Virus record (IMG/VR): IMGVR_UViG_3300023283_000017
Span: 3,370 to 67,369 of that record
Source of the DNA: a virus
Taxonomy: Duplodnaviria; Caudoviricetes
DNA: 64,000 bases
Direction: 5' to 3' (one strand)
Under the pieces are notes generated by a model that saw nothing but the letters and a program-made list of their open reading frames with translations, made no database searches and was not told the DNA's origin. Both the position numbers and the translations under genes were made by a program. Below, piece after piece: positions 2,442-25,150 of this stretch (positions are counted from its first letter, which is position 1; the number at the start of each line of letters is the position of its first letter).

Positions 2442-2804
2442 TCAGATGTCACCACGGCGAGAAAACCATGTCGTTTCCCCGCCAATTTCCTCGATCATGA
2501 AGGAGCCTTTCTGTAGCTCCTCTGTTACAGCACGACCGATTTTGTAGGCGTGGGTCCACAACTCCCGGATGTCACTAGGAAATCTCGGGTAGTTACGAAG
2601 TCCAACCCGAAGCCCTTTCTCGGATCCGCCTGCATATATGTACTTCGTCTTTGTCACAGAAACGCAAAGACCGACGTGGTCAGCATATTGCTGAACCACG
2701 TTCTCTGCTAACGCGTCGTTGAATATAGACCCAGTCGAGACCCAGACGTCGATGCCGTGAGATTCCGCGACGCGGTAACGCCACTCAGAATGGCACTGAT
2801 CCAT
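2442..2804 (-). CDS. Conserved phage hypothetical protein
   Basis: VGLCVSVTKTKYIYAGGSEKGLRVGLRNYPRFP resembles a recurring phage family; start uncertain. Confidence 0.6.
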   Translation of the reverse strand: MDQCHSEWRYRVAESHGIDVWVSTGSIFNDALAENVVQQYADHVGLCVSVTKTKYIYAGGSEKGLRVGLRNYPRFPSDIRELWTHAYKIGRAVTEELQKGSFMIEEIGGETTWFSRRGDI

Positions 2805-3096
2805 CGCCGCCAAAAGGTTTCTTCGGATCGAACCCGTCTCTCTTTCTTGCATTGGCAGTGGCCTCCCGTAGCTCGCGGCGGAGTTTGTCGGGATCGTTCC
2901 ACGTGACGCGCACGAGGCCGAGTCCCAGGTTGAAGATGATGGTCGAGCCTCCGACGTCCACGCCGAACTTGAAGAACCAGCCACCGCCGAACCGCTGGTT
3001 TCCTGAACCTCGCAGACGCCACCCGAAACCTTGCCACGGCCAGCGGTCAGCTTTCATCCACAGCGAGACGAGCGGGACCTTGCGGTAGCCGCTCAT
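2785..3096 (-). CDS. Hypothetical protein, Trp/Gly-rich
   Basis: ORF track; start overlaps the upstream stop. Confidence 0.6.
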   Translation of the reverse strand: MSGYRKVPLVSLWMKADRWPWQGFGWRLRGSGNQRFGGGWFFKFGVDVGGSTIIFNLGLGLVRVTWNDPDKLRRELREATANARKRDGFDPKKPFGGDGSVPF

Positions 3097-3347
3097 GCGT
3101 CACCTCGCACGGCTTTGTAGTGGTCGACGAGATCACGACCGGCGGGAGTGAGCCGCCATTGGTAAGGTGACGTTGACTTGTCCTTGCAGCAATAGCCGAG
3201 CTCCTCTAGCCGCTTGAGCTTCGGGGCGGCCCAGAACCGAGGACGTCCGGCCTTGCGCGAGACATCCGACGCAGCGGACTCCGGCGGCGCGATGCGGTCG
3301 AACTCACCGAGCGCGAGAAGGCAGTCAACCTGCAGGCGCGTCAGCAT
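3093..3347 (-). CDS. Winged-helix DNA-binding protein (MarR-like)
   Basis: AASDVSRKAGR...KLKRLEELGY...WRLTPAGRDL; start set at MLTRLQ after a GGAG RBS. Confidence 0.6.
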   Translation of the reverse strand: MLTRLQVDCLLALGEFDRIAPPESAASDVSRKAGRPRFWAAPKLKRLEELGYCCKDKSTSPYQWRLTPAGRDLVDHYKAVRGDA

Positions 3348-3627
3348 CGGCTTCTCCTTTCTCTCTTTCGCGTAGAGTGCGGATGGCTTTGTCAGTGAGC
3401 GCATACCCGGCGCCCCTAGGCTCGCCGTCTGCTGACCACAGCCCTTTGACGTGCTCGACGATGCCGCGGTCGCGAAGACTGCGCAGGACGCCGCGCGCGA
3501 TCTCGCGAAGAATGGACTGGAAGAAGTTGAGCGAGAAAGCCCGTGCAGGTTCGTAGGTGAAGGCCCGCATGCGCTCGATTAGGCGGATCTCGACCTCGTC
3601 GAGCGGCGACCAGCAGCGACCGATCAT
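3325..3627 (-). CDS. Winged-helix-like protein
   Basis: VLRSLRDRGIVEH...GYALTDKA wing motif. Confidence 0.55.
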   Translation of the reverse strand: MIGRCWSPLDEVEIRLIERMRAFTYEPARAFSLNFFQSILREIARGVLRSLRDRGIVEHVKGLWSADGEPRGAGYALTDKAIRTLREREKGEADADAPAG

Positions 3628-3761
3628 GCAGTGCTCCCCGACTTTGGCCGACCGGCCTGCTCGTGGCGATTGACGGCTGCGAGCATGAGACTGACCAAGC
3701 AGTCTCGGGTGCGTTCGTGGGCGCCGAACTGCATGACCTGACCCTTGTAGGCGATGACCAT
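3624..3761 (-). CDS. Small hypothetical protein (45 aa)
   Basis: AAGGA RBS before MVIAYKG; stop overlaps the next start. Confidence 0.45.
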   Translation of the reverse strand: MVIAYKGQVMQFGAHERTRDCLVSLMLAAVNRHEQAGRPKSGSTA

Positions 3762-12699: not shown

Positions 12700-14690
12700 T
12701 TTGCCTCATCCCAGTTGCTACCCAAGGTTCCGTCAGCTAGAACAGGCACCTCCAGCGTCACTGCCTGCTCCATGATGTGTCGAAGCTCCTCAAACGCCTC
12801 GTGCCCCTCTTTCGTGCGAGGCACTGACGAGTTCAGTTCATCATGAACTGTGAGGTGCGGCACGAGCACATTGAACACGCCGGCGTCCCACGCGTCGACC
12901 ATGGCCTTCTTCATCAGGTCGGCGGCCGAACCTTGAAGCAGGGCGTTTAGCGACTTGTGAGTGAACGACCGACGTGGGCGCTTCGTGACGCGGCGCGTGC
13001 TGAGAACGGCGTCTAGCAGCTTCTCGTCCACAAGCTCCTTGACAACCTCACCCTTGTCGCCCCGGTACTCTACCTCGAAAGTCGGGAACCGACGCTTTCG
13101 ACCGAGTATGGTGCGGATAAAGCCGCGCGACGCAGCAGCGCTCGACGCGCGCTCGAGCATGGATCGGATGAAAGGCGCGTTCGCGTGGAACTTGTCCATG
13201 ATCGCTTGCGCGTCGGACATCTCGACGCCGAGCGACGCAGCCAGCTTCGGCACCCCCATCCCGTAGACGACGCCGAAGTTCACGTTCTTCGCCTGCTTGC
13301 GAGGCACACCAGTCAGGTCAGACGCCATCTGGTGGAAGTCGGTGCTCGGGTCCTGACGGTACATGCGAACTGCTTCCGAGGCGTCGATACCTTTGGTGCT
13401 GGCCGCGTAGTGCACGAGCAGTCGGTACTCGATCTGCGACCAGTCGAGCGACCCCCATTGCATCCCCTCTTCCGGTATGAACATGGAGCGCATGAGCGGT
13501 CCGAGTTCAGGATGGCGAGCCGGGATGTTCTGCAGGTTCGGGTTAGAGCTCGAGAAACGACCGGACACGGTCCCTGACTCGTCTGACTTGAGCTGGTTGA
13601 ACATGCAGTGGATGCGGCCGCCAACGTGCCCCTGCAGGATGTAGGAGTCGATGAAGGTGCCGGCCGTTTTGTCATACTCGCGCGCCCGCATGATTAGTTG
13701 CGCGATCTCGTGGTTGCACGCCTTCAGCCAGTCTTTCTTGAATGATGGCTTGCCCGTGGCTGTCCTCTCGTACTCAAGTCCTAGCGCGTCGAAGCCAACA
13801 GAAATCGAGTCCGCCGACCAGATGTCCACCGACGTGCCCGCCATGTCGCGCAGCTTTGCCTCGATCTCGGCCTTTTCCTTGCGAAGGCGATCCGACGAGT
13901 CCTCGGCTTTCTTGACGTTGACGCGCACCCCTTGGTAGCGCATTTCCAGGAGCAGCGGCGTCAATGCGGCTTCGATACGGAAAAGCTCGAGCAGTTCGTC
14001 CTGTTCAAGCTTCGACTGCTGCTTGTCGAAGACCCGCCAAGCGAGCGTTGCGTCATCCTCGGCGTAGACAGATGCGTGCGACGGATGCACCCGGTGCATG
14101 TTCTCGATGTAGCCTTGGCCGTAGAGCTTGACCAACTCGTCGTAGGACTTGGTGAGGTTCAGGTAGTCTTTGCAAAGCGCATCGAGCTTGTAGGTTAGGC
14201 GGTTCTCGTCGATAAGGGGCTCTGCTATCTGCACGTCGCGGAACTTCGCCTTCGGGAACACGATGCCGTGACGCGTGCGCAGCCAGTCTAGGTCGTACTG
14301 CAGGTTGGCGCCGACGATCTCACCTTCGAACTTCTGAGCTTCCTCGGCAAGCCGAGCGTAGAACTTGTCCGGGTCTTCGACGTTCGGGCCGACCTCGTGC
14401 TGAGTTGGGTAGTAACACGCGTCTTGTTCAGCATAGGCTATGGACACACCGACGACCTTGCCGTCCTTACGATGCGCACCGGGCCCGAACTGGTCGATGC
14501 CCGGGTCATGCGCCTCGATGTCCAGGCCAATGCGCTTCAGGCCGTCGATAGAGCGGTACTCAGGAGGTGCGTAGTCGCGGGGGAGCTCTCGAGGCACCTC
14601 AAAGTGCTTTCGCGCTTTCGCGGGTGTCTTCTGCTGCGGTTGAACATGCGCGAGATCAAAGAGACCTCCGTCGACTAGGCCGACCATCAA
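12696..14690 (-). CDS. polA: Family A DNA polymerase with a 3'-5' exonuclease domain
   Basis: LDIEA (Exo I), ANLQYD, TVSGRFSSSNPNLQNIP, DWSQIEYR (motif A), KQAKNVNFGVVYG (B), VHDEL (C). Confidence 0.96.
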   Translation of the reverse strand: MMVGLVDGGLFDLAHVQPQQKTPAKARKHFEVPRELPRDYAPPEYRSIDGLKRIGLDIEAHDPGIDQFGPGAHRKDGKVVGVSIAYAEQDACYYPTQHEVGPNVEDPDKFYARLAEEAQKFEGEIVGANLQYDLDWLRTRHGIVFPKAKFRDVQIAEPLIDENRLTYKLDALCKDYLNLTKSYDELVKLYGQGYIENMHRVHPSHASVYAEDDATLAWRVFDKQQSKLEQDELLELFRIEAALTPLLLEMRYQGVRVNVKKAEDSSDRLRKEKAEIEAKLRDMAGTSVDIWSADSISVGFDALGLEYERTATGKPSFKKDWLKACNHEIAQLIMRAREYDKTAGTFIDSYILQGHVGGRIHCMFNQLKSDESGTVSGRFSSSNPNLQNIPARHPELGPLMRSMFIPEEGMQWGSLDWSQIEYRLLVHYAASTKGIDASEAVRMYRQDPSTDFHQMASDLTGVPRKQAKNVNFGVVYGMGVPKLAASLGVEMSDAQAIMDKFHANAPFIRSMLERASSAAASRGFIRTILGRKRRFPTFEVEYRGDKGEVVKELVDEKLLDAVLSTRRVTKRPRRSFTHKSLNALLQGSAADLMKKAMVDAWDAGVFNVLVPHLTVHDELNSSVPRTKEGHEAFEELRHIMEQAVTLEVPVLADGTLGSNWDEAK

Positions 14691-15505
14691 GCCATCCCCG
14701 CATACAGGTGAGCTTGAACCTGGAACCGCAGACCGTTCGCGACCGCGTAGCGGGCAGTGTGCTCGTGGTTCGCTTGGTTGGTAGTCAGGTCAAGCAGCCC
14801 GGGTTCCCAGAAGGAGATGACTTCCTCGACAGTCGAGCGCTGCTCCATGGACGTCGCGTTGCTCGTTCGCATGACTTTCGCTTTCCGAGGTTCGCGCGCG
14901 TAGACGTTCATAGGCGAGACGAACACGTCGCCCGGGCTACTTAGGTTCCAGTCGAGCGCCCAGTCGGGAATGGACGAGTAAGGGGACGATGGGTCCGCGC
15001 ACATCACGAACTTGAGACTGTCCGCGCGCTCGAGAACCTCATCTCGCGGCGTCAAGTAGCGCGTGGCCACGCCTCGCTTCTCCATGCACTTCGGCGACAC
15101 GACTAGGTGGACATCGTCGGGAAGCGGTTGCAGAAGCGTGCCGTTGCTCTCGATCTGGATGTTGCGCCACAGCCCAACTTGCGTCTCGAGCCACTCGCCG
15201 AGCTCTTTCTGGAGCAGCGGCTCGCCGCCGGTGATCACCAAGACGTAGTCCTTCGCTTCGAGCGGCGTCTCGAATACCAGGTCGCCCAGATGGTCGTTTA
15301 AACGGTCGAAAGTCAGCCAGTCTCCGGAGTCGAAATAAGTGTCGCAGAAAGAGCACGCCAGGTTGCACTTCGCGAGGCGCACGAAGACGGCAGGAAGGCC
15401 CGAAAATGGACCTTCCCCTTGAAGCGTGACGAAGCAGGAAGTCACGTGGAGAACGCCTTCTTCGGCAAAGTGTCGCTGACCCACTCGCTCGTTGAGGCCG
15501 AACAT
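14687..15505 (-). CDS. queE: 7-carboxy-7-deazaguanine synthase (radical SAM)
   Basis: TLQGEG...AVFVRLAKCNLACSFCDT (CxxxCxxC), ITGGEPLLQ, IESNGT, VSPK. Confidence 0.93.
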   Translation of the reverse strand: MFGLNERVGQRHFAEEGVLHVTSCFVTLQGEGPFSGLPAVFVRLAKCNLACSFCDTYFDSGDWLTFDRLNDHLGDLVFETPLEAKDYVLVITGGEPLLQKELGEWLETQVGLWRNIQIESNGTLLQPLPDDVHLVVSPKCMEKRGVATRYLTPRDEVLERADSLKFVMCADPSSPYSSIPDWALDWNLSSPGDVFVSPMNVYAREPRKAKVMRTSNATSMEQRSTVEEVISFWEPGLLDLTTNQANHEHTARYAVANGLRFQVQAHLYAGMA

Positions 15506-17941: not shown

Positions 17942-19142
17942 AGTAGGTGAGCTCCTCTTCGGCTCTCGTCACCACGGTGTAGAGCCAGCGTCTGCGTTGT
18001 AGTCGGTCGTTTACGCGCATCCGGTCGTCCGCGATGACGACGTGGCGCCATTGAGAGCCCTGCGACTTGTGCCCGGTGATGCAGTAGCCGTAGTCGAAAG
18101 CTTGAACGCCATCAGCACGAAGGAAAATGGTGCGCTGCTCATAGTTCTCCTGGAAGAGCCCTGGGTCGCAGATGATCTGACCTTTCGTCCCATCGTAGTC
18201 GACTTCCAGGTGCAGCAAGTTGCCTTTCTTGAACGAGTCACGCGCGGCACGGCACGTCACCCCATTCAAGTATCCCTTATCATGGTCGTTGCGGCGACAG
18301 ATCAGCTTGTCGTCGGCGAGTGGGTACTTGTCGGTGAATCCGATGAACTTGCGCATGGCGCGAGTAAGGCGGTGCCTCGATTGGTTAGAGCCCGTAATGA
18401 CCTGCCCCGCGTTCAGCGCAACCTCCATATCCCACTCAGACTTGCGCTTGATCCTGACCAACCCGTCGCCGAACTCACCGAACTTCACACTGCCGCCTTG
18501 CCTGATCTCGTTCGCGAGCCAGATAATGGGGCTGTCAGCGGCTTGCCGGTGAATCTCCTCGAGGACGAAGTCGTAGTCGTTAGATGTCAGGTGCGCCTTG
18601 CCCTTGACAGGAGGAAGCTGCCCTGGGTCACCCAGATACAGGACCGGTACTCCATAGGACTCGAGGTCCTTGCCCATACGAGCATCTACCATGGAGGACT
18701 CGTCAACTATGACAAGATCAGCATCCTCGATCTCGCAGTCTGATTTTCGCTCAAAAACAGCAGACGATTCTTCCGTTGCTTTGTTGAGCTCACGTTGCCA
18801 GGTGCTCAGCTTCTGCTGGTCGGGTTGCTGCTTCTCGGCTTCCTGCTCTATCAAGCGTTGCAGCTCTTCGACCTGCTCCTGACCGACGTTTCCTTTCGGC
18901 TGGTAGATCAGCTTGTGGATCGTCGTCGCGCCAGGGCATCCTTTCTCGCGAAGAACAGAGGCGGCCTTACCGGTGAAAGCCGCGAACTTGACCTCACCGC
19001 CTAGGCTTTCCGCGATGTGACGTGCGAGCGTCGTCTTACCAGTGCCTGCGTATCCGCCTAGTGCGAAACGCGTCGTTTCCCTGTTCTTGAGCCACCTGTC
19101 GATCTCGAGTAAGGCGCGTTCCTGACCCGGTGACCAATCCAT
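17934..19142 (-). CDS. SF1B Dda/RecD2-like helicase
   Basis: GYAGTGKTT, AFTGKAA, TIHKLIY, DESSMV, GDPGQLPPV, EIHRQA, ITGHKSQGSQW; ATG overlaps the dpdA stop (TAATG). Confidence 0.9.
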   Translation of the reverse strand: MDWSPGQERALLEIDRWLKNRETTRFALGGYAGTGKTTLARHIAESLGGEVKFAAFTGKAASVLREKGCPGATTIHKLIYQPKGNVGQEQVEELQRLIEQEAEKQQPDQQKLSTWQRELNKATEESSAVFERKSDCEIEDADLVIVDESSMVDARMGKDLESYGVPVLYLGDPGQLPPVKGKAHLTSNDYDFVLEEIHRQAADSPIIWLANEIRQGGSVKFGEFGDGLVRIKRKSEWDMEVALNAGQVITGSNQSRHRLTRAMRKFIGFTDKYPLADDKLICRRNDHDKGYLNGVTCRAARDSFKKGNLLHLEVDYDGTKGQIICDPGLFQENYEQRTIFLRADGVQAFDYGYCITGHKSQGSQWRHVVIADDRMRVNDRLQRRRWLYTVVTRAEEELTYYV

Positions 19143-20443
19143 TATAGTCCTCCGAACAGGAACTGCTGTGCTGGTTCCTTCTTGTAGTCCTTCGCCCACT
19201 CAGCGAACACAACGAACTCAGCCATGCAGATCAGGTTGCGAACGCGCGAGTCCCACCGGCAGACCTCGAAGGGAAAGCCTAAGCGCTCGACGCGCTCCCG
19301 AACGTAGGCCTGCTGCTCCTCGGGTAGAGTCCAGAAGTGCTTGCCTTGGTCAGCCAAGTGTCCTCCGAACAAAGGAAGAGCGTCCTCATGAACACCGGCG
19401 CGAATGAGGGTGTCCGAAACGTCCGCGCAGGACGTATCTACGGTGCACCCGAGCTCTGCTGCGCTGACAAGCGACCCGTCACTCGTGCGCGCCCGAGCCT
19501 CGACGCTGATGCTCACCCCTTCGAGCGAGACAAAGTAGTTCATATAGTGCGGCTCTGCTTTCCGACCTCCGGTGTGCGCTTGGTCATGGAAGATGTCTAT
19601 CATACCGAAGCCGCCGTGCTGCACCCACGCCGCGGAGTCGCCCGAGTACCAAGGCACGTTGCGCACCATTCGATTACCGGTCGTCGCGAGGCCGTGGGTG
19701 ACGATGTGCGGCCAACGGTCCTTGATGATTGAGTGCGCGTCGCGTGACCAGTCGACACGCTTGCCCTCTGGTAGGTCGTTGCGCGGCGAGACACAGATGT
19801 AGTTGTGTTTGCCGTCTACCTGCTCGACGCACTCACCGAGACGGTCGAAGCTCTCCCCTTGGTGAAAGACGGGCAGGATGATGTTGCCGAACTCCTCGGT
19901 CAGGAGCTTGTAGTTGATATCTGAGATGCGGACCGCTTCCTCGATTTCTTCAGGGGTCGGATCGCGGCCACGTTCCCCTGGGATGACGTCCAGGTTGATG
20001 CCCCAGATCTCATCGAACAGGCCGTCTGCGGCTTCGATGAACCGGGAGTACTTGCGCTTCACGTCGTCGACTGTGACGGTCTCACCTTTGTTCCAAGCCG
20101 TGAAGGCGCCGCTATCAAGCAGGATGGCTCTTGGGTAGGGCTTGCCGCGCAACGTCTGGCAGACGCGCTCCAGGATCTCAGTCGTGTCCCAGTCTTCCGA
20201 GCGCGCAAACTCCTTCTGCTGTTCGCGTCGCTGCGCGTCGCGCTTCTTGATGTTATCGACGTGCTGAGGATACGCTTGCAAGTAAGCGTCCGCGTCGAGG
20301 ATCCCAGCGTGAAGGTCCTTTACCCACCGCAGGACAGCTTTCTCATAGTCCCCGTGCATCGAGAAAAGCCGGTGCGTGTTCATACGGTTCTCGACGGTCT
20401 GGTAAGGATCGTTGCGCGGCGTGCCGGACATATACAGATGCAC
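19142..20443 (-). CDS. dpdA: DpdA-type DNA-guanine transglycosylase (TGT fold)
   Basis: LDSGAFTAW, NLDVIPG, PVFHQGE, HGLA, PWYSGDSAAW motifs; context of que genes. Confidence 0.85.
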   Translation of the reverse strand: MHLYMSGTPRNDPYQTVENRMNTHRLFSMHGDYEKAVLRWVKDLHAGILDADAYLQAYPQHVDNIKKRDAQRREQQKEFARSEDWDTTEILERVCQTLRGKPYPRAILLDSGAFTAWNKGETVTVDDVKRKYSRFIEAADGLFDEIWGINLDVIPGERGRDPTPEEIEEAVRISDINYKLLTEEFGNIILPVFHQGESFDRLGECVEQVDGKHNYICVSPRNDLPEGKRVDWSRDAHSIIKDRWPHIVTHGLATTGNRMVRNVPWYSGDSAAWVQHGGFGMIDIFHDQAHTGGRKAEPHYMNYFVSLEGVSISVEARARTSDGSLVSAAELGCTVDTSCADVSDTLIRAGVHEDALPLFGGHLADQGKHFWTLPEEQQAYVRERVERLGFPFEVCRWDSRVRNLICMAEFVVFAEWAKDYKKEPAQQFLFGGL

Positions 20444-20454
20444 TGGTGCGTTCC

Positions 20455-20634
20455 TCAGCTCACCAGGTCGTCGACTTGTCGCTCGAAGTCGTCGCGCGCC
20501 TCGTCGAGGTTGTCTATGGACGTTTTGCTCATCGCGTTGCGAAAGCGAAATGTTGCCTCGATGAGTTCCCGCGGAATTTCTGCGTTGCTCGCTGTGTTAT
20601 CGAGGAACCTAGACTGGGCGTCGGTGAAATACAT
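20455..20634 (-). CDS. 59-aa acidic hypothetical protein
   Basis: Read by eye (MYFTDAQSRF...RQVDDLVS); AACGGAG RBS. Confidence 0.6.
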   Translation of the reverse strand: MYFTDAQSRFLDNTASNAEIPRELIEATFRFRNAMSKTSIDNLDEARDDFERQVDDLVS

Positions 20635-20673
20635 GGCTAGCTCCGTTACTGTGTCGTTACAGTAATTTGAGTG

Positions 20674-20703
20674 AGGCCCGCCTTCAACACCAAAAGCGGG
20701 CCT
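20674..20703 (-). terminator. Stem-loop AGGCCCGC / GCGGGCCT after queF
   Basis: 8-bp inverted repeat just after the queF stop; no clear U-tract. Confidence 0.4.
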
Positions 20704-20711
20704 TACCTGGA

Positions 20712-21185
20712 TCAGTGCGGTTCGGGCATATGCGCGTCCGAGCCGCGCTGGTACTCCATGCTAGGATTGATCGAGATGCCGCCGCGAGGAGTGAACTCGC
20801 CGGTGACGCGCATCCACTGTGGATCGAGGAGCGTCACGAGATCGCCCAGAATGCGCGCTACGCAGGCCTCGTGGAAGTCTTGGTGGTTGCGGAAGGAAGC
20901 GAGATAGAGCTTCCAGGACTTCGACTCGACGCACCACGAGAGCGGGACGTACTCGACGACGATCCGAGCGAAGTCCGGTTGACCGGTCTTCGGGCACAGC
21001 GACGTGAACTCCTTGGGGTCCTCATAGCCACCGAGCTGGATCACCGGAAGACCGTTCGCGAGAAGGTTCATCGGGTTGCGGAAACGCTCGAGAAGGTCGC
21101 TGTCGGCCGGCTTGAAGTTACCGAAGTCGGACGACCCCGACCCGAGGTGCTTGAGGCTGGTTGCGTCGGAAGACGTTTTGCTCAT
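20712..21185 (-). CDS. queF: preQ0 reductase, unimodular type
   Basis: [15 protein letters not shown] (catalytic Cys/Asp), QueF motif [18 protein letters not shown]. Confidence 0.92.
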
Positions 21186-21189
21186 GTTG

Positions 21190-21843
21190 TTACTCCAGGA
21201 ACAGAGGGTGTTGATGGGGTCCGGTCTCGACGTATTCGATGGCCGGCTCTAGTCGATGGGGCACCTCGAAGTACTCCATCCACGTTCGCAAGCGACGCAG
21301 CCGCCTTGCCGCGTCAGCCGTCGTCTCCGCGTCAGCGTCTGTCATCTCGCACAGTGCCCCACGCTCGCCGTCGATCCTGAGCATCGCCCAGCCACGACCG
21401 AAGAGCTTTTGGGTGAGATGGTTCGGCTTGTCGTCCGCCGCGAACTCGAGAAAGCGCATGAGCTCGAAGTCGCAGGAGAACGGTTGCAGGCCGTGAATGC
21501 CGCACCGACCGAACAACTCGCCTTCCTCGCGGATGACGTTTCGGCAGTGGTAGCTCTCGTGATCCGATTGCAAGTCGGACCAGATGAGGAAGCTCTTGCC
21601 ATTCACCTCGACGTAGCGCTCAACGAGGTCTAGCGGAGGCTTGTCCTCGGTAGGCAGGTAGTCGAGCGAGAAGCGAGGACAGCAACCGGCGCAGCGGGCG
21701 GGACACGTGAAGCCTCGGAAGATCTTAGGCGACACGCGGACGGCTTTCGGCGTGTAGGTCTTGCCTTTGTAGGTAAAAGGCTGCGCCGCCATGACGGCAA
21801 AGTAGGTGCCGACGACCTTGTCCAGTGTGTCGCGCTGCGGCAT
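21190..21843 (-). CDS. Cys-rich putative Fe-S protein (YkgJ/FliB CxxCxxCC-like)
   Basis: [11 protein letters not shown] and C...[11 protein letters not shown]; 8 Cys; ATG overlaps the folE stop. Confidence 0.7.
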
Positions 21844-22787
21844 CAGATTGGCGTCGTCGTCTTGGCTAGCATCAGGAACTCCTGGCGAGCATCAGGTTCC
21901 TGCTTGATGCAACCACGCAGAGCGGAGGTCGTCGTCGAGCACCCACGGTGCTGGATCCCTCGCGACTCAACACACATATGGCGTGCGCGCAACAGGACGC
22001 CTACTCCCTTCGGTTCGAGGCAGTCTTGAAGGGCGTCCGCGATCTGGTTGGTCAATCGCTCCTGCACCTGCAGGCGCCTCGCGTAGAGGTCGACCAGTCG
22101 GTTCATCTTGGAAAGTCCCAGGACCTTACCATTCGGGATATAGGCGACCGACGCGAGGCCGAAGAAAGGCGCCATATGATGCTCACAGTGCGAGTAGAAC
22201 GGGATGTCTACCTCGATGACCATCTCGTCTACGCCCTCGGCACCATCCGTGAACACCTTGAGGACTTCCTTCGGGTCGCGAGTGTAGCCGGAGAACCAGG
22301 TCTCCCATGCTTTGACGACACGCCGCGGCGTCTCGAGCAGTCCTTCACGCGTCGCGTCGTCGCCGACGACCTCGAGGGAACGCGTCACCACATCGAACGC
22401 GCTCTCGTCGTGGTCGTCGATGACTTCCCATGGGAACACGAGCCAGTCGGGGTTCATGACAAGACCGACCTTGTTCTCGTGCTGAGGGCTTTTCGCGAAC
22501 AAGGCGAAGAACGGCTTGCCGGCGGCGCGGTGCCGAGTCATTGTCGACCCCGAGTCGATCAGGTCGTCCACAATGACATCTGCCTCCGCGAGATCACTCG
22601 TCGCCATGATGTTGACCTTGGTCGACCGCTCAGCTGCGCGCTGCAAGGCGAGCAACGCGGGCACCCCACCGCGAGGCACTGGATATGCCTTGATCTCGGC
22701 AGGCGCAAGAGCGGCGCGCTCTATGCGGTTCATGAGTAGAGAGGCCGCTTGCGCGACCTCCCCATAGGTGACGATGCGCTTGGTCAC
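21843..22787 (-). CDS. folE: Fusion of an N-terminal purine phosphoribosyltransferase (Gpt-like) and a C-terminal GTP cyclohydrolase I
   Basis: PRT: [26 protein letters not shown]. FolE: [33 protein letters not shown]. Confidence 0.92.
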
Positions 22788-23629
22788 GCAGGCACCTCCT
22801 CGAGCTCTGCTTCCTGCACGAGCGAGATGTAGTCGTCGACCGTCCAGGTGTTGCGGTTGCCCGCAGGCCCACGTTCCACGACCTCGCGCGCAACGTCGTA
22901 GTTCGACGACGCGGGCAGCTCACCCAGCGACTCGCACGCCGCGCGGAGCCAGATCGGGTCCGCGACACCTGCGGCCTCGAACCCCCGCTCCCGGAGCTTA
23001 GTCGCGTGGTCGGCGCCCGTGGGCGGATACTGACCATCGTAGGCGGTATGGGAGTAGGCGAGCGCGTTCATGCACCCAGGCAGGCGACGCGCGAGGTGGA
23101 CGCTCTCCGCCTTGGTCAGATCCATCAGCGGGGTGTGGATCTTGCAGGGGCCGATGGCGCCGTCTTGACCCGTGAACGTCCCGCGATTGATAGTCTCCTC
23201 GAGCGAGTCGATGAAGGTCTGACGGCAGTCGGGATAGCCGCCGAAGTCCTCCTGGCAGACACCGGTCACCATGTTGTGGCAGCCGTTGACGTAGGCGCGG
23301 TTCGCCGCGATGGTCAGGAACAGCTGGTTCCGCATGGGAACGAAGGTCTTCTCGAGGCCGCCGGGCAGGTTGCCGTCCTCATACTGCTCGAGGGCGTTGT
23401 CCGACACGAGCGGCGAGGTGCCTTTCAGGATGGGGCCAAGTTCGATGACCTCGTGGGAGTCGGCTTTGGCGAGTTGCGCGATCTTCACCGCCGCGTCGAT
23501 CTCGGCACGGTGGCGCTGGTTGTAGTCGAAGGTGACCGCGTGAACCTCGAGGAAGTTCTGCTTTGCCCAGAAGAGGGCGGTGGTCGAGTCCTGCCCACCG
23601 GACAGGACGACGAGTGCTTTGCTAGTCAT
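22784..23629 (-). CDS. queC: 7-cyano-7-deazaguanine synthase, variant without the Zn cysteines
   Basis: [34 protein letters not shown]; start set at MTSKAL. Confidence 0.92.
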
Positions 23630-23667
23630 GAAGTGGTTTTCCTTTCCTGGTACCCACCACAGGTGAA

Positions 23668-23683
23668 GCACGTTTAAACGTGC
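23668..23683. promoter_or_regulatory. Perfect 16-bp palindrome GCACGTTTAAACGTGC upstream of queC
   Basis: Seen directly; member of the GTTTAAAC family. Confidence 0.7.
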
Positions 23684-23764
23684 GATTGAACGTGAAACGC
23701 GGCGCCACGTAAGCGCCGCGTCAGTCACGTTATGGTGCGCGCCCCGCGGGGCGCAACCGATGAG

Positions 23765-24703: not shown

Positions 24704-25150
24704 TTACCTTTTGAAGACGGCCGAGTTCGCTCCGTGCTCCATCACCTCGACAGAAGCCAAGCGAACGCGGTCGCCGTAGCCGGCATCCTTGAGCCAAATC
24801 TCTGTGGTCTCGAAGATGAGCTCCGCGAACGCCTCGCACCCGTTAGCGTAGGTGACTACCATGTCGATGATGCCGCGGGCGTCGGCCTCCCGGAACCAGT
24901 CGATGTGCGGGTCATCATGAGCGACCAGCGTCTTGTGGTCGAAGGTGTCCTCGAGCCGACCTTTGAGCGTCTTGAGCGACCCGAAGTCGACCACCCAGTT
25001 GCGCTCGTCGAGGCTGTCGGCCTCGAAGACAAACTTGATCGCCAGGGCGTAGCCATGAAGGAAGCGGCAGTGGGAATCCGCTCGCCACTGACGGAAAGCG
25101 GCGGAGAGGCCGAGGTTGTGCCCGTAGGTCTTCGTCGACTGGTAGGTCAT
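24704..25150 (-). CDS. queD: 6-carboxytetrahydropterin synthase
   Basis: SHCRFLHGY, WVVDFG, FDHKTL, VMEH. Confidence 0.9.
   Translation of the reverse strand: MTYQSTKTYGHNLGLSAAFRQWRADSHCRFLHGYALAIKFVFEADSLDERNWVVDFGSLKTLKGRLEDTFDHKTLVAHDDPHIDWFREADARGIIDMVVTYANGCEAFAELIFETTEIWLKDAGYGDRVRLASVEVMEHGANSAVFKR

Follow-up and report, generated by a model that had tools for sequence, protein, structure and literature searches.

The DNA analysed here, called the window below, is 64 kb of a 67,369 bp virus record from IMG/VR that has direct terminal repeats and is rated complete by CheckV. On its minus strand, the window carries a long run of genes that includes a helicase, a HAD/NT5C phosphatase, QueD, two small open reading frames (ORFs), QueC and a fusion of a phosphoribosyltransferase-like domain with FolE (PRT-FolE), and continues after PRT-FolE with the gene of interest, QueF, a 59-residue ORF, DpdA and a RecD-like helicase. 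The gene of interest, designated dpdM on the grounds given below, occupies positions 21190–21843 of the minus strand and encodes a predicted (d)preQ1 N-methyltransferase of 217 residues with a CxxxCxxCC motif and eight Cys. The initial annotation of the locus had described a 217-residue protein with the segment CPARCAGCC, a CxxxCxxC pattern and eight Cys, encoded between folE and queF, and all of these features are present in the sequence. CPARCAGCC corresponds to residues 47–55 and reads CxxxCxxCC, so that CxxxCxxC is contained within it. The Cys residues number exactly eight (47, 51, 54, 55, 100, 114, 124 and 165).

The overlap between the dpdM start codon and the folE stop codon that had been pointed out in the same annotation was also confirmed. 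The junction on the minus strand is TGATG, in which the two codons have one base in common. At the other end of dpdM, a gap of 4 nt separates the gene from the start of queF (TAA-CAAC-ATG), and GGAG is found immediately before the dpdM stop codon. These tight junctions with folE and queF on either side suggest co-translation of dpdM with the pathway genes. Two ORFs on the plus strand overlap the gene (20667–21380 and 21256–21633); the support from homologues is for the minus-strand frame. Among word-sharing candidates, 381 homologues of dpdM were detected at E≤1e-3, and their alignments begin at residue 1. Taken together with the 507 representatives found with HMMER (see below), this indicates that 21190–21843 is a genuine gene rather than an ORF that arose by chance in a genome with 60% GC. 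The GC content is 0.59–0.63 throughout the 7-deazaguanine cluster, and there is therefore no compositional sign that the cluster containing dpdM was acquired recently.

The predicted preQ1 pathway encoded around dpdM

The gene adjoining dpdM, queF (20712–21185, minus strand), encodes a unimodular preQ0 reductase producing preQ1 (PF14489, E 1.8e-32, 111.8 bits; TIGR03139, 137.5 bits against a cut-off of 86.9). dpdA (19142–20443, minus strand), 750 nt away from dpdM, encodes a DNA guanine transglycosylase of 433 residues. The protein was detected by no Pfam model, and matched phrog_887, queuine tRNA-ribosyltransferase, with an E value of 5.7e-55. It is 76% and 69% identical to the transglycosylases (TGT) of Pan1 and Dinoroseobacter phage R5C, respectively, and its core is 28–32% identical to DpdA of phages 9g, phiSM and Iggy. 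With 433 residues, it is longer than DpdA from phiSM and Knocker (240–282 residues). The part that can be aligned with other phage DpdAs is limited to residues ~105–290, and its long extensions at both termini are common only to Pan1, R5C and some metagenomic relatives. The 59-residue ORF lying between queF and dpdA (20455–20634, minus strand) gave no family match, and displays 31–39% identity to Pan1_54 (gp54) and R5C gp85, which are found at the equivalent position. Its product may be a small DpdA partner.

On the other side of dpdM, the PRT-FolE gene (21843–22787, minus strand) encodes 314 residues, with the GTP cyclohydrolase I domain at residues 134–308 (PF01227, E 3e-69, 232 bits). Residues 52–122 of the PRT-like part matched phrog_8995, phosphoribosyl transferase (E 4.7e-6), and the xanthine phosphoribosyltransferase model NF006613 (E 1.3e-4). 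This N-terminal domain spans ~125 residues, whereas the FolE proteins of Pan1 and R5C are plain enzymes of ~190 residues; the domain might salvage the guanine set free by DpdA. queC (22784–23728, minus strand; PF06508, E 3.2e-52) and queD (24704–25150, minus strand; PF01242, E 3.5e-17) encode preQ0 synthase and CPH4 synthase, respectively. When the C-terminal part of QueC was inspected by eye, no Cys residues were apparent at the place that corresponds to the Zn-binding Cys cluster of bacterial QueC.

The core cluster contains no QueE, and we considered dpdM as a substitute for this enzyme. This was rejected, as a radical-SAM QueE is encoded at 14687–15505 (minus strand), outside the core cluster and about 5.7 kb from dpdM. 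This CDG synthase of 272 residues is the sole PF04055 match in the genome (35.7 bits, above the cut-off), and in NCBIfam it is matched best by five models for QueE (E 1e-19 to 3e-12), with none of the scores reaching the equivalog cut-off. With FolE, QueD, QueE, QueC, QueF and DpdA all present, the phage encodes a complete route from GTP to preQ1 together with the enzyme for insertion into DNA. The FolE domain, QueD, QueE and QueC would convert GTP to preQ0, QueF would reduce preQ0 to preQ1, and DpdA would put preQ1 in the place of guanine in the DNA of the phage. DpdM would then methylate the nitrogen of the exocyclic aminomethyl group, generating 7-(methylamino)methyl-7-deazaguanine (mdPreQ1), with either free preQ1 or dPreQ1 in DNA as the methyl acceptor. 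Methylation of preQ1 in phage DNA helps phages to evade restriction enzymes of the host.

Identification of the protein as DpdM

The initial annotation had pointed out that N-methyl-preQ1 in phage DNA is attributed to a protein named DpdM, and had left undecided whether the protein described here is DpdM or a member of an undescribed family. The attribution agrees with the study of Cui et al. (2023, Nucleic Acids Res, PMC10516641), in which DpdM was named and CEPG_00054 was linked to 7-(methylamino)methyl-7-deazaguanine. We searched 50,697 phage records with the dpdM protein using tblastn. Matches were obtained in 27 records, and only to DpdM-family genes, those of the phiSM group, the VH7D group, Pan1 and Knocker. 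In the phiSM group, the match was to CEPG_00054 itself (AGH07802.1; 41–42% identity, E 1e-30), which also adjoins queF. Genes of the Vibrio group VH7D/phi-Grn1/phi-ST2 showed 39–40% identity (E about 5e-26). We take the VH7D protein in this group, AGB06868.1, to be the validated VH7D DpdM, because its Cys numbering agrees with that of Cui et al.; C33 (phiSM) and C50 (VH7D) in their numbering are C34 and C49 here.

In a multiple alignment (A1), the window protein shows 41% identity to both phiSM DpdM and VH7D DpdM, compared with only 24% between those two. The eight Cys residues (47/51/54/55/100/114/124/165) correspond one-to-one to residues 34/38/41/42/92/102/112/150 of the phiSM protein and 45/49/52/53/120/129/146/222 of the VH7D protein, and each was found in 133 or more of the 135 representatives of the family. 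In a midpoint-rooted tree of the 135 members, the phiSM and VH7D proteins span the whole tree, so that the window protein falls between two proteins that have been linked to one product. The family is named in no Pfam or NCBIfam model, and its members are consequently annotated as ‘hypothetical’ or ‘YkgJ family’ proteins. The window protein itself gave no Pfam or NCBIfam match with hmmscan, and its only PHROGs matches, phrog_16018 and phrog_21666, are both labelled ‘unknown function’.

The predicted structure points in the same direction. An AlphaFold2 model built from an alignment of 49 sequences (pLDDT 92.8, pTM 0.88) gave three significant matches in BFVD, to A0A8F3IQ84 (TM 0.91, 214 residues), A0A4D5ZBK6 (0.85, 304 residues) and M1PXL2 (0.81, 217 residues). 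Going by length and identity alone, these would correspond to Knocker gp4, a VH7D-type DpdM and phiSM DpdM, respectively. A Foldseek comparison, proposed in the initial annotation, thus finds resemblance to models of phage DpdM-family proteins and to no PDB entry at E≤0.001. An exhaustive VIA-align comparison with 48,161 chains gave a best Z of only 2.5, and a profile search of PDB sequences returned chance matches alone (VEGF and RPB3, E≥0.13). The absence of solved relatives accords with the published statement that the DpdM fold is not seen in known methylases (PMC10516641).

Along with its fold, the window protein has the length of 217 residues, the CxxxCxxCC motif, the eight metal-site Cys and the position next to queF in a preQ1/DpdA cluster in common with phiSM DpdM. 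Motif, metal-site Cys and fold are likewise common to VH7D DpdM, although the latter, with 304 residues, carries inserts that are lacking in the window protein. The window phage differs from phiSM and VH7D in host lineage and phage type, being a Pan1/R5C-like (Nanhaivirus-like) siphophage with ~60% GC, and differs also in the position of dpdM, which is flanked by folE and queF and coupled in translation to the PRT-FolE fusion. Among cultured phages, the closest homologue is gp55 of Pseudanabaena phage Pan1 (UXO93770.1, ‘YkgJ family cysteine cluster protein’; 65–67% identity), and gp4 of Mycobacterium phage Knocker is also close (46–47%). Both are encoded inside 7-deazaguanine clusters, and neither is annotated as DpdM. 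The gene order in the window matches those of Pan1 and R5C (L004 and L069 in our set), but R5C is devoid of dpdM, and dpdM of Pan1 is found between a small ORF and dpdA rather than between folE and queF. Because the gene is absent in R5C and differently placed in Pan1 and the window, dpdM seems to belong to the accessory, movable genes of these phages.

Homology, metal-site Cys, fold and gene linkage (below) all point to DpdM, and an undescribed family is not supported. We therefore regard the product of 21190–21843 as an orthologue of DpdM, a tailoring enzyme of phage 7-deazaguanine DNA modification, with a probability of about 0.8. We predict that it N-methylates preQ1 in DNA to give mdPreQ1, in line with the preQ1 N-methylase candidate put forward initially. 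The identification as such is routine annotation, DpdM and its activity having already been described in 2023.

Predicted metal sites and relationship to YkgJ and FliB

Cui et al. (2023, PMC10516641) described a CxxxCxxCC motif in DpdM and predicted two metal pockets from AlphaFold models. By aligning the window protein onto these sites, we infer two Cys4 metal sites, one formed by C47, C51, C54 and C165, and the other by C55, C100, C114 and C124. In the first, three of the Cys are at the spacing found in radical-SAM enzymes, and we examined whether the protein could be a divergent member of that superfamily, replacing QueE or carrying out a C-methylation. One member of the DpdM family alignment (A2) did give a match to viperin, but at chance level (E 0.067). 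The window protein displayed neither a PF04055 match nor a TIM-barrel-like fold match, a separate QueE is encoded in the window as described above, and in the published DpdM models the site contains a fourth conserved Cys, equivalent to C165, which according to Cui et al. argues against a classical SAM-binding 4Fe-4S cluster (PMC10516641). In addition, their tandem mass spectrometry places the methyl group on the amine (PMC10516641). A radical-SAM identity is consequently very unlikely.

The initial annotation had placed the protein in a CxxCxxCC family that includes FliB. In terms of domain content this holds, as a PF03692 domain is common to both, but a direct profile–profile match between the two was not significant. 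Matches to PF03692 at E≤1 were obtained for 45 of 49 DpdM relatives, covering profile positions 2–70, from the first Cys to the residue equivalent to C124. Scores of P0027 (31.4 bits), P0018 (31.1 bits) and phiSM DpdM (25.7 bits) exceed the gathering threshold of 23 bits. The window protein gave no PF03692 match at E≤1 with hmmscan, so membership holds for the family by transitivity rather than for the window sequence alone. Compared with E. coli YkgJ and PF03692, DpdM has ~45 additional residues at the N-terminus and ~90 at the C-terminus, the latter including the eighth Cys. Cui et al. assigned DpdM to DUF3109 with HHpred (PMC10516641); with hmmscan, whose sensitivity is below that of HHpred, no DUF3109 match at E≤1 was found in the window protein, 48 relatives or four phage DpdM-family proteins.

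Concerning FliB, we collected 12 matches to NF038110 from sampled genomes of one bacterial phylum, eight of which match the PF03692 span also matched by DpdM relatives. Neither the window protein nor its 49 relatives matched NF038110 or any other NCBIfam model. Comparison of the DpdM (A2) and FliB (A3) alignments with hhalign gave a probability of 3.8% at full length and 4.9% (E 0.008) after trimming, neither of which is significant; the trimmed alignment lines up seven Cys. Since PF03692 is all that they have in common and the direct comparison is not significant, DpdM and FliB appear to belong to a common domain superfamily but to different families. Both have an N-terminal C..C..CC and further conserved Cys, eight by the count of each paper. 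The motif of FliB, including the proteins found here, is CX4CX3CC, in contrast to CX3CX2CC in DpdM, and FliB is about 390–440 residues long with a large additional C-terminal region that is lacking in DpdM. The substrate of FliB is a protein and that of DpdM a base, but in both cases a primary aliphatic amine is methylated.

FliB, the flagellin lysine N-methyltransferase, requires an oxygen-sensitive [4Fe-4S] cluster and converts SAM to SAH (Wang et al. 2021, PMC8598068). By analogy, at least one site of DpdM probably holds an oxygen-sensitive [4Fe-4S] cluster, with SAM as the methyl donor, as FliB is a PF03692 protein that uses both and also N-methylates a primary amine. FliB would thus be the best available model for methylation of the preQ1 aminomethyl group by DpdM.

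Genetic linkage of the DpdM family to DpdA

HMMER searches of 1.84 billion cluster representatives identified 507 DpdM-family members at E≤1e-3, of which 221 remained at E≤1e-30. At 50% identity, the family thus comprises no fewer than 507 clusters. It is a small family with clear limits, and the profile does not extend to YkgJ proteins at large. The initial annotation had reasoned that homologues mostly unlinked to queF and dpdA would speak against a role in preQ1 modification, and we therefore examined 55 IMG/VR loci with a DpdM homologue. A queF gene was present within 10 kb in 34 of the loci and elsewhere in the record in nine. The 12 records without queF are all fragments that are at most 36% complete. 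Likewise, DpdA was found within 10 kb in 30 of the 55 and elsewhere in the record in five, the latter recovered by means of a DpdA profile. The remaining records without DpdA are fragments of at most 55% completeness, plus VH7D, whose DpdA2 is documented by Cui et al. (PMC10516641). The most common order, dpdM, queF, dpdA, is that of the window. The homologues in viral loci are therefore linked to queF and dpdA.

The linkage also bears on the proposal that the gene encodes a generic YkgJ-type metal-binding protein unrelated to DNA modification, or is a spurious ORF, for which one could cite the lack of a Pfam or NCBIfam match and the long chance ORFs that GC-rich DNA yields; this is refuted by the strong association with queF and dpdA, the eight near-invariant Cys across 507 representative clusters and a profile confined to these 507 among 1.84 billion representatives, and we give it the least credence of all.

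In three proteins, DpdM is naturally fused to a DpdA-like transglycosylase, and both domain orders occur. The partner was identified by BLAST against the window DpdA, as Pfam was uninformative on these long fusions. One fusion, P0133, is identical in two independent assemblies (L083:6001–8340 and L084:4094–6433) and adjoins a gene for a large serine recombinase, and preQ1 genes are absent from its surroundings. The other two are P0179 (L082:294–3488) and P0214. In a further set of contigs, the DpdM homologue is paired with a DUF6610/PF20314 gene (E 1e-47 to 1e-53). DUF6610 represents the DpdA4 subfamily, which Cui et al. (2023, PMC10516641) described as confined to archaeal viruses. Such pairs were found here in three contigs of bacterial metagenome-assembled genomes (MAGs) (L065:8898–10633, L066:8177–9458 and L061:1198–3548) and in three IMG/VR viral contigs (L027, L039 and L041). 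When we looked for DUF6610 in the 26 records without DpdA near dpdM, none was found. The two genes of the pair overlap at their stop and start codons in L065 and L066, where no queF, queC or folE is present within 10 kb. None of the pairs in bacterial contigs has preQ1-synthesis genes nearby, and the pair looks like a two-gene module that relies on host preQ1. A host QueF was found in just one of the three MAGs. Mobile-element genes occur close to the DpdM homologue in some of the contigs, a DDE transposase in L065 and a resolvase in L063, the latter without DUF6610.

Published measurements raise the question of whether methylation is the main outcome of DpdM activity. Expression of VH7D dpdM together with dpdA2 in E. 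coli leads to mdPreQ1 formation (Cui et al. 2023, PMC10516641), but mdPreQ1 is a minor species in every published case. In phiSM DNA, it amounts to 212 per 10^6 nt against 3790 for dPreQ1, and across phiSM and the Vibrio phages to about 5% of dPreQ1; in E. coli, it reaches only 9–40 per 10^6 nt (PMC10516641). On addition of DpdM in E. coli, nearly all of the dPreQ1 signal is lost, falling from 2765–3666 to 0–97 per 10^6 nt, without a matching rise in mdPreQ1 (PMC10516641, Table 2). As dPreQ1 drops with no equal gain in mdPreQ1, methylation may not be the principal result. The protein could accordingly belong to the DpdM family with N-methylation as a side reaction, its main role being another conversion of (d)preQ1 or that of an Fe-S or Zn accessory protein of DpdA, for example one tuning what, or how much, the transglycosylase inserts. 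The DpdA fusions and the bacterial contigs in which DpdA is the sole partner also point to a tight coupling with the transglycosylase rather than with a methyl-donor enzyme. On the other hand, mdPreQ1 is not seen in phages or E. coli lacking DpdM (PMC10516641), no alternative product has been seen, and the low yield may perhaps be due to an oxygen-sensitive cluster or poor expression, as with FliB in vitro (PMC8598068). We consider this explanation improbable, though to be taken seriously.

A broader version, to which we give a similarly low likelihood, is that DpdM-family proteins, that of the window included, are not primarily N-methylases but metalloenzymes coupled to DpdA, the principal product or function of which has escaped detection, with the DpdA and DUF6610 modules being self-contained and drawing on the host preQ1 pool. 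It would explain both the trace levels of mdPreQ1 and the loss of dPreQ1 in E. coli when DpdM is added. If this were the case, the DpdA fusions and the DpdA4/DUF6610 pairs in bacterial mobile elements without preQ1 genes would represent a self-contained module for DNA hypermodification.

Returning to DpdM as an N-methylating tailoring enzyme, we found no literature on DpdM or mdPreQ1 other than Cui et al. 2023 and its preprint. The survey described here extends a family published from eight phages in terms of its size, the retention of its Cys residues, its fusions with DpdA and its bacterial DUF6610/DpdA4 neighbours. The large family, the retained Cys, a fold predicted with confidence and unmatched among solved structures, the DpdA fusions and the bacterial DpdA4 pairs make DpdM a good target for studies on the structure and mechanism of metal-dependent N-methyl transfer. 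Our identification predicts that the DNA of the Pan1/R5C-like phage analysed here carries mdPreQ1 in addition to dPreQ1, and Pan1, which has dpdM, and R5C, which does not, provide a natural pair for evaluating the effect of DpdM on phage DNA and on escape from restriction.
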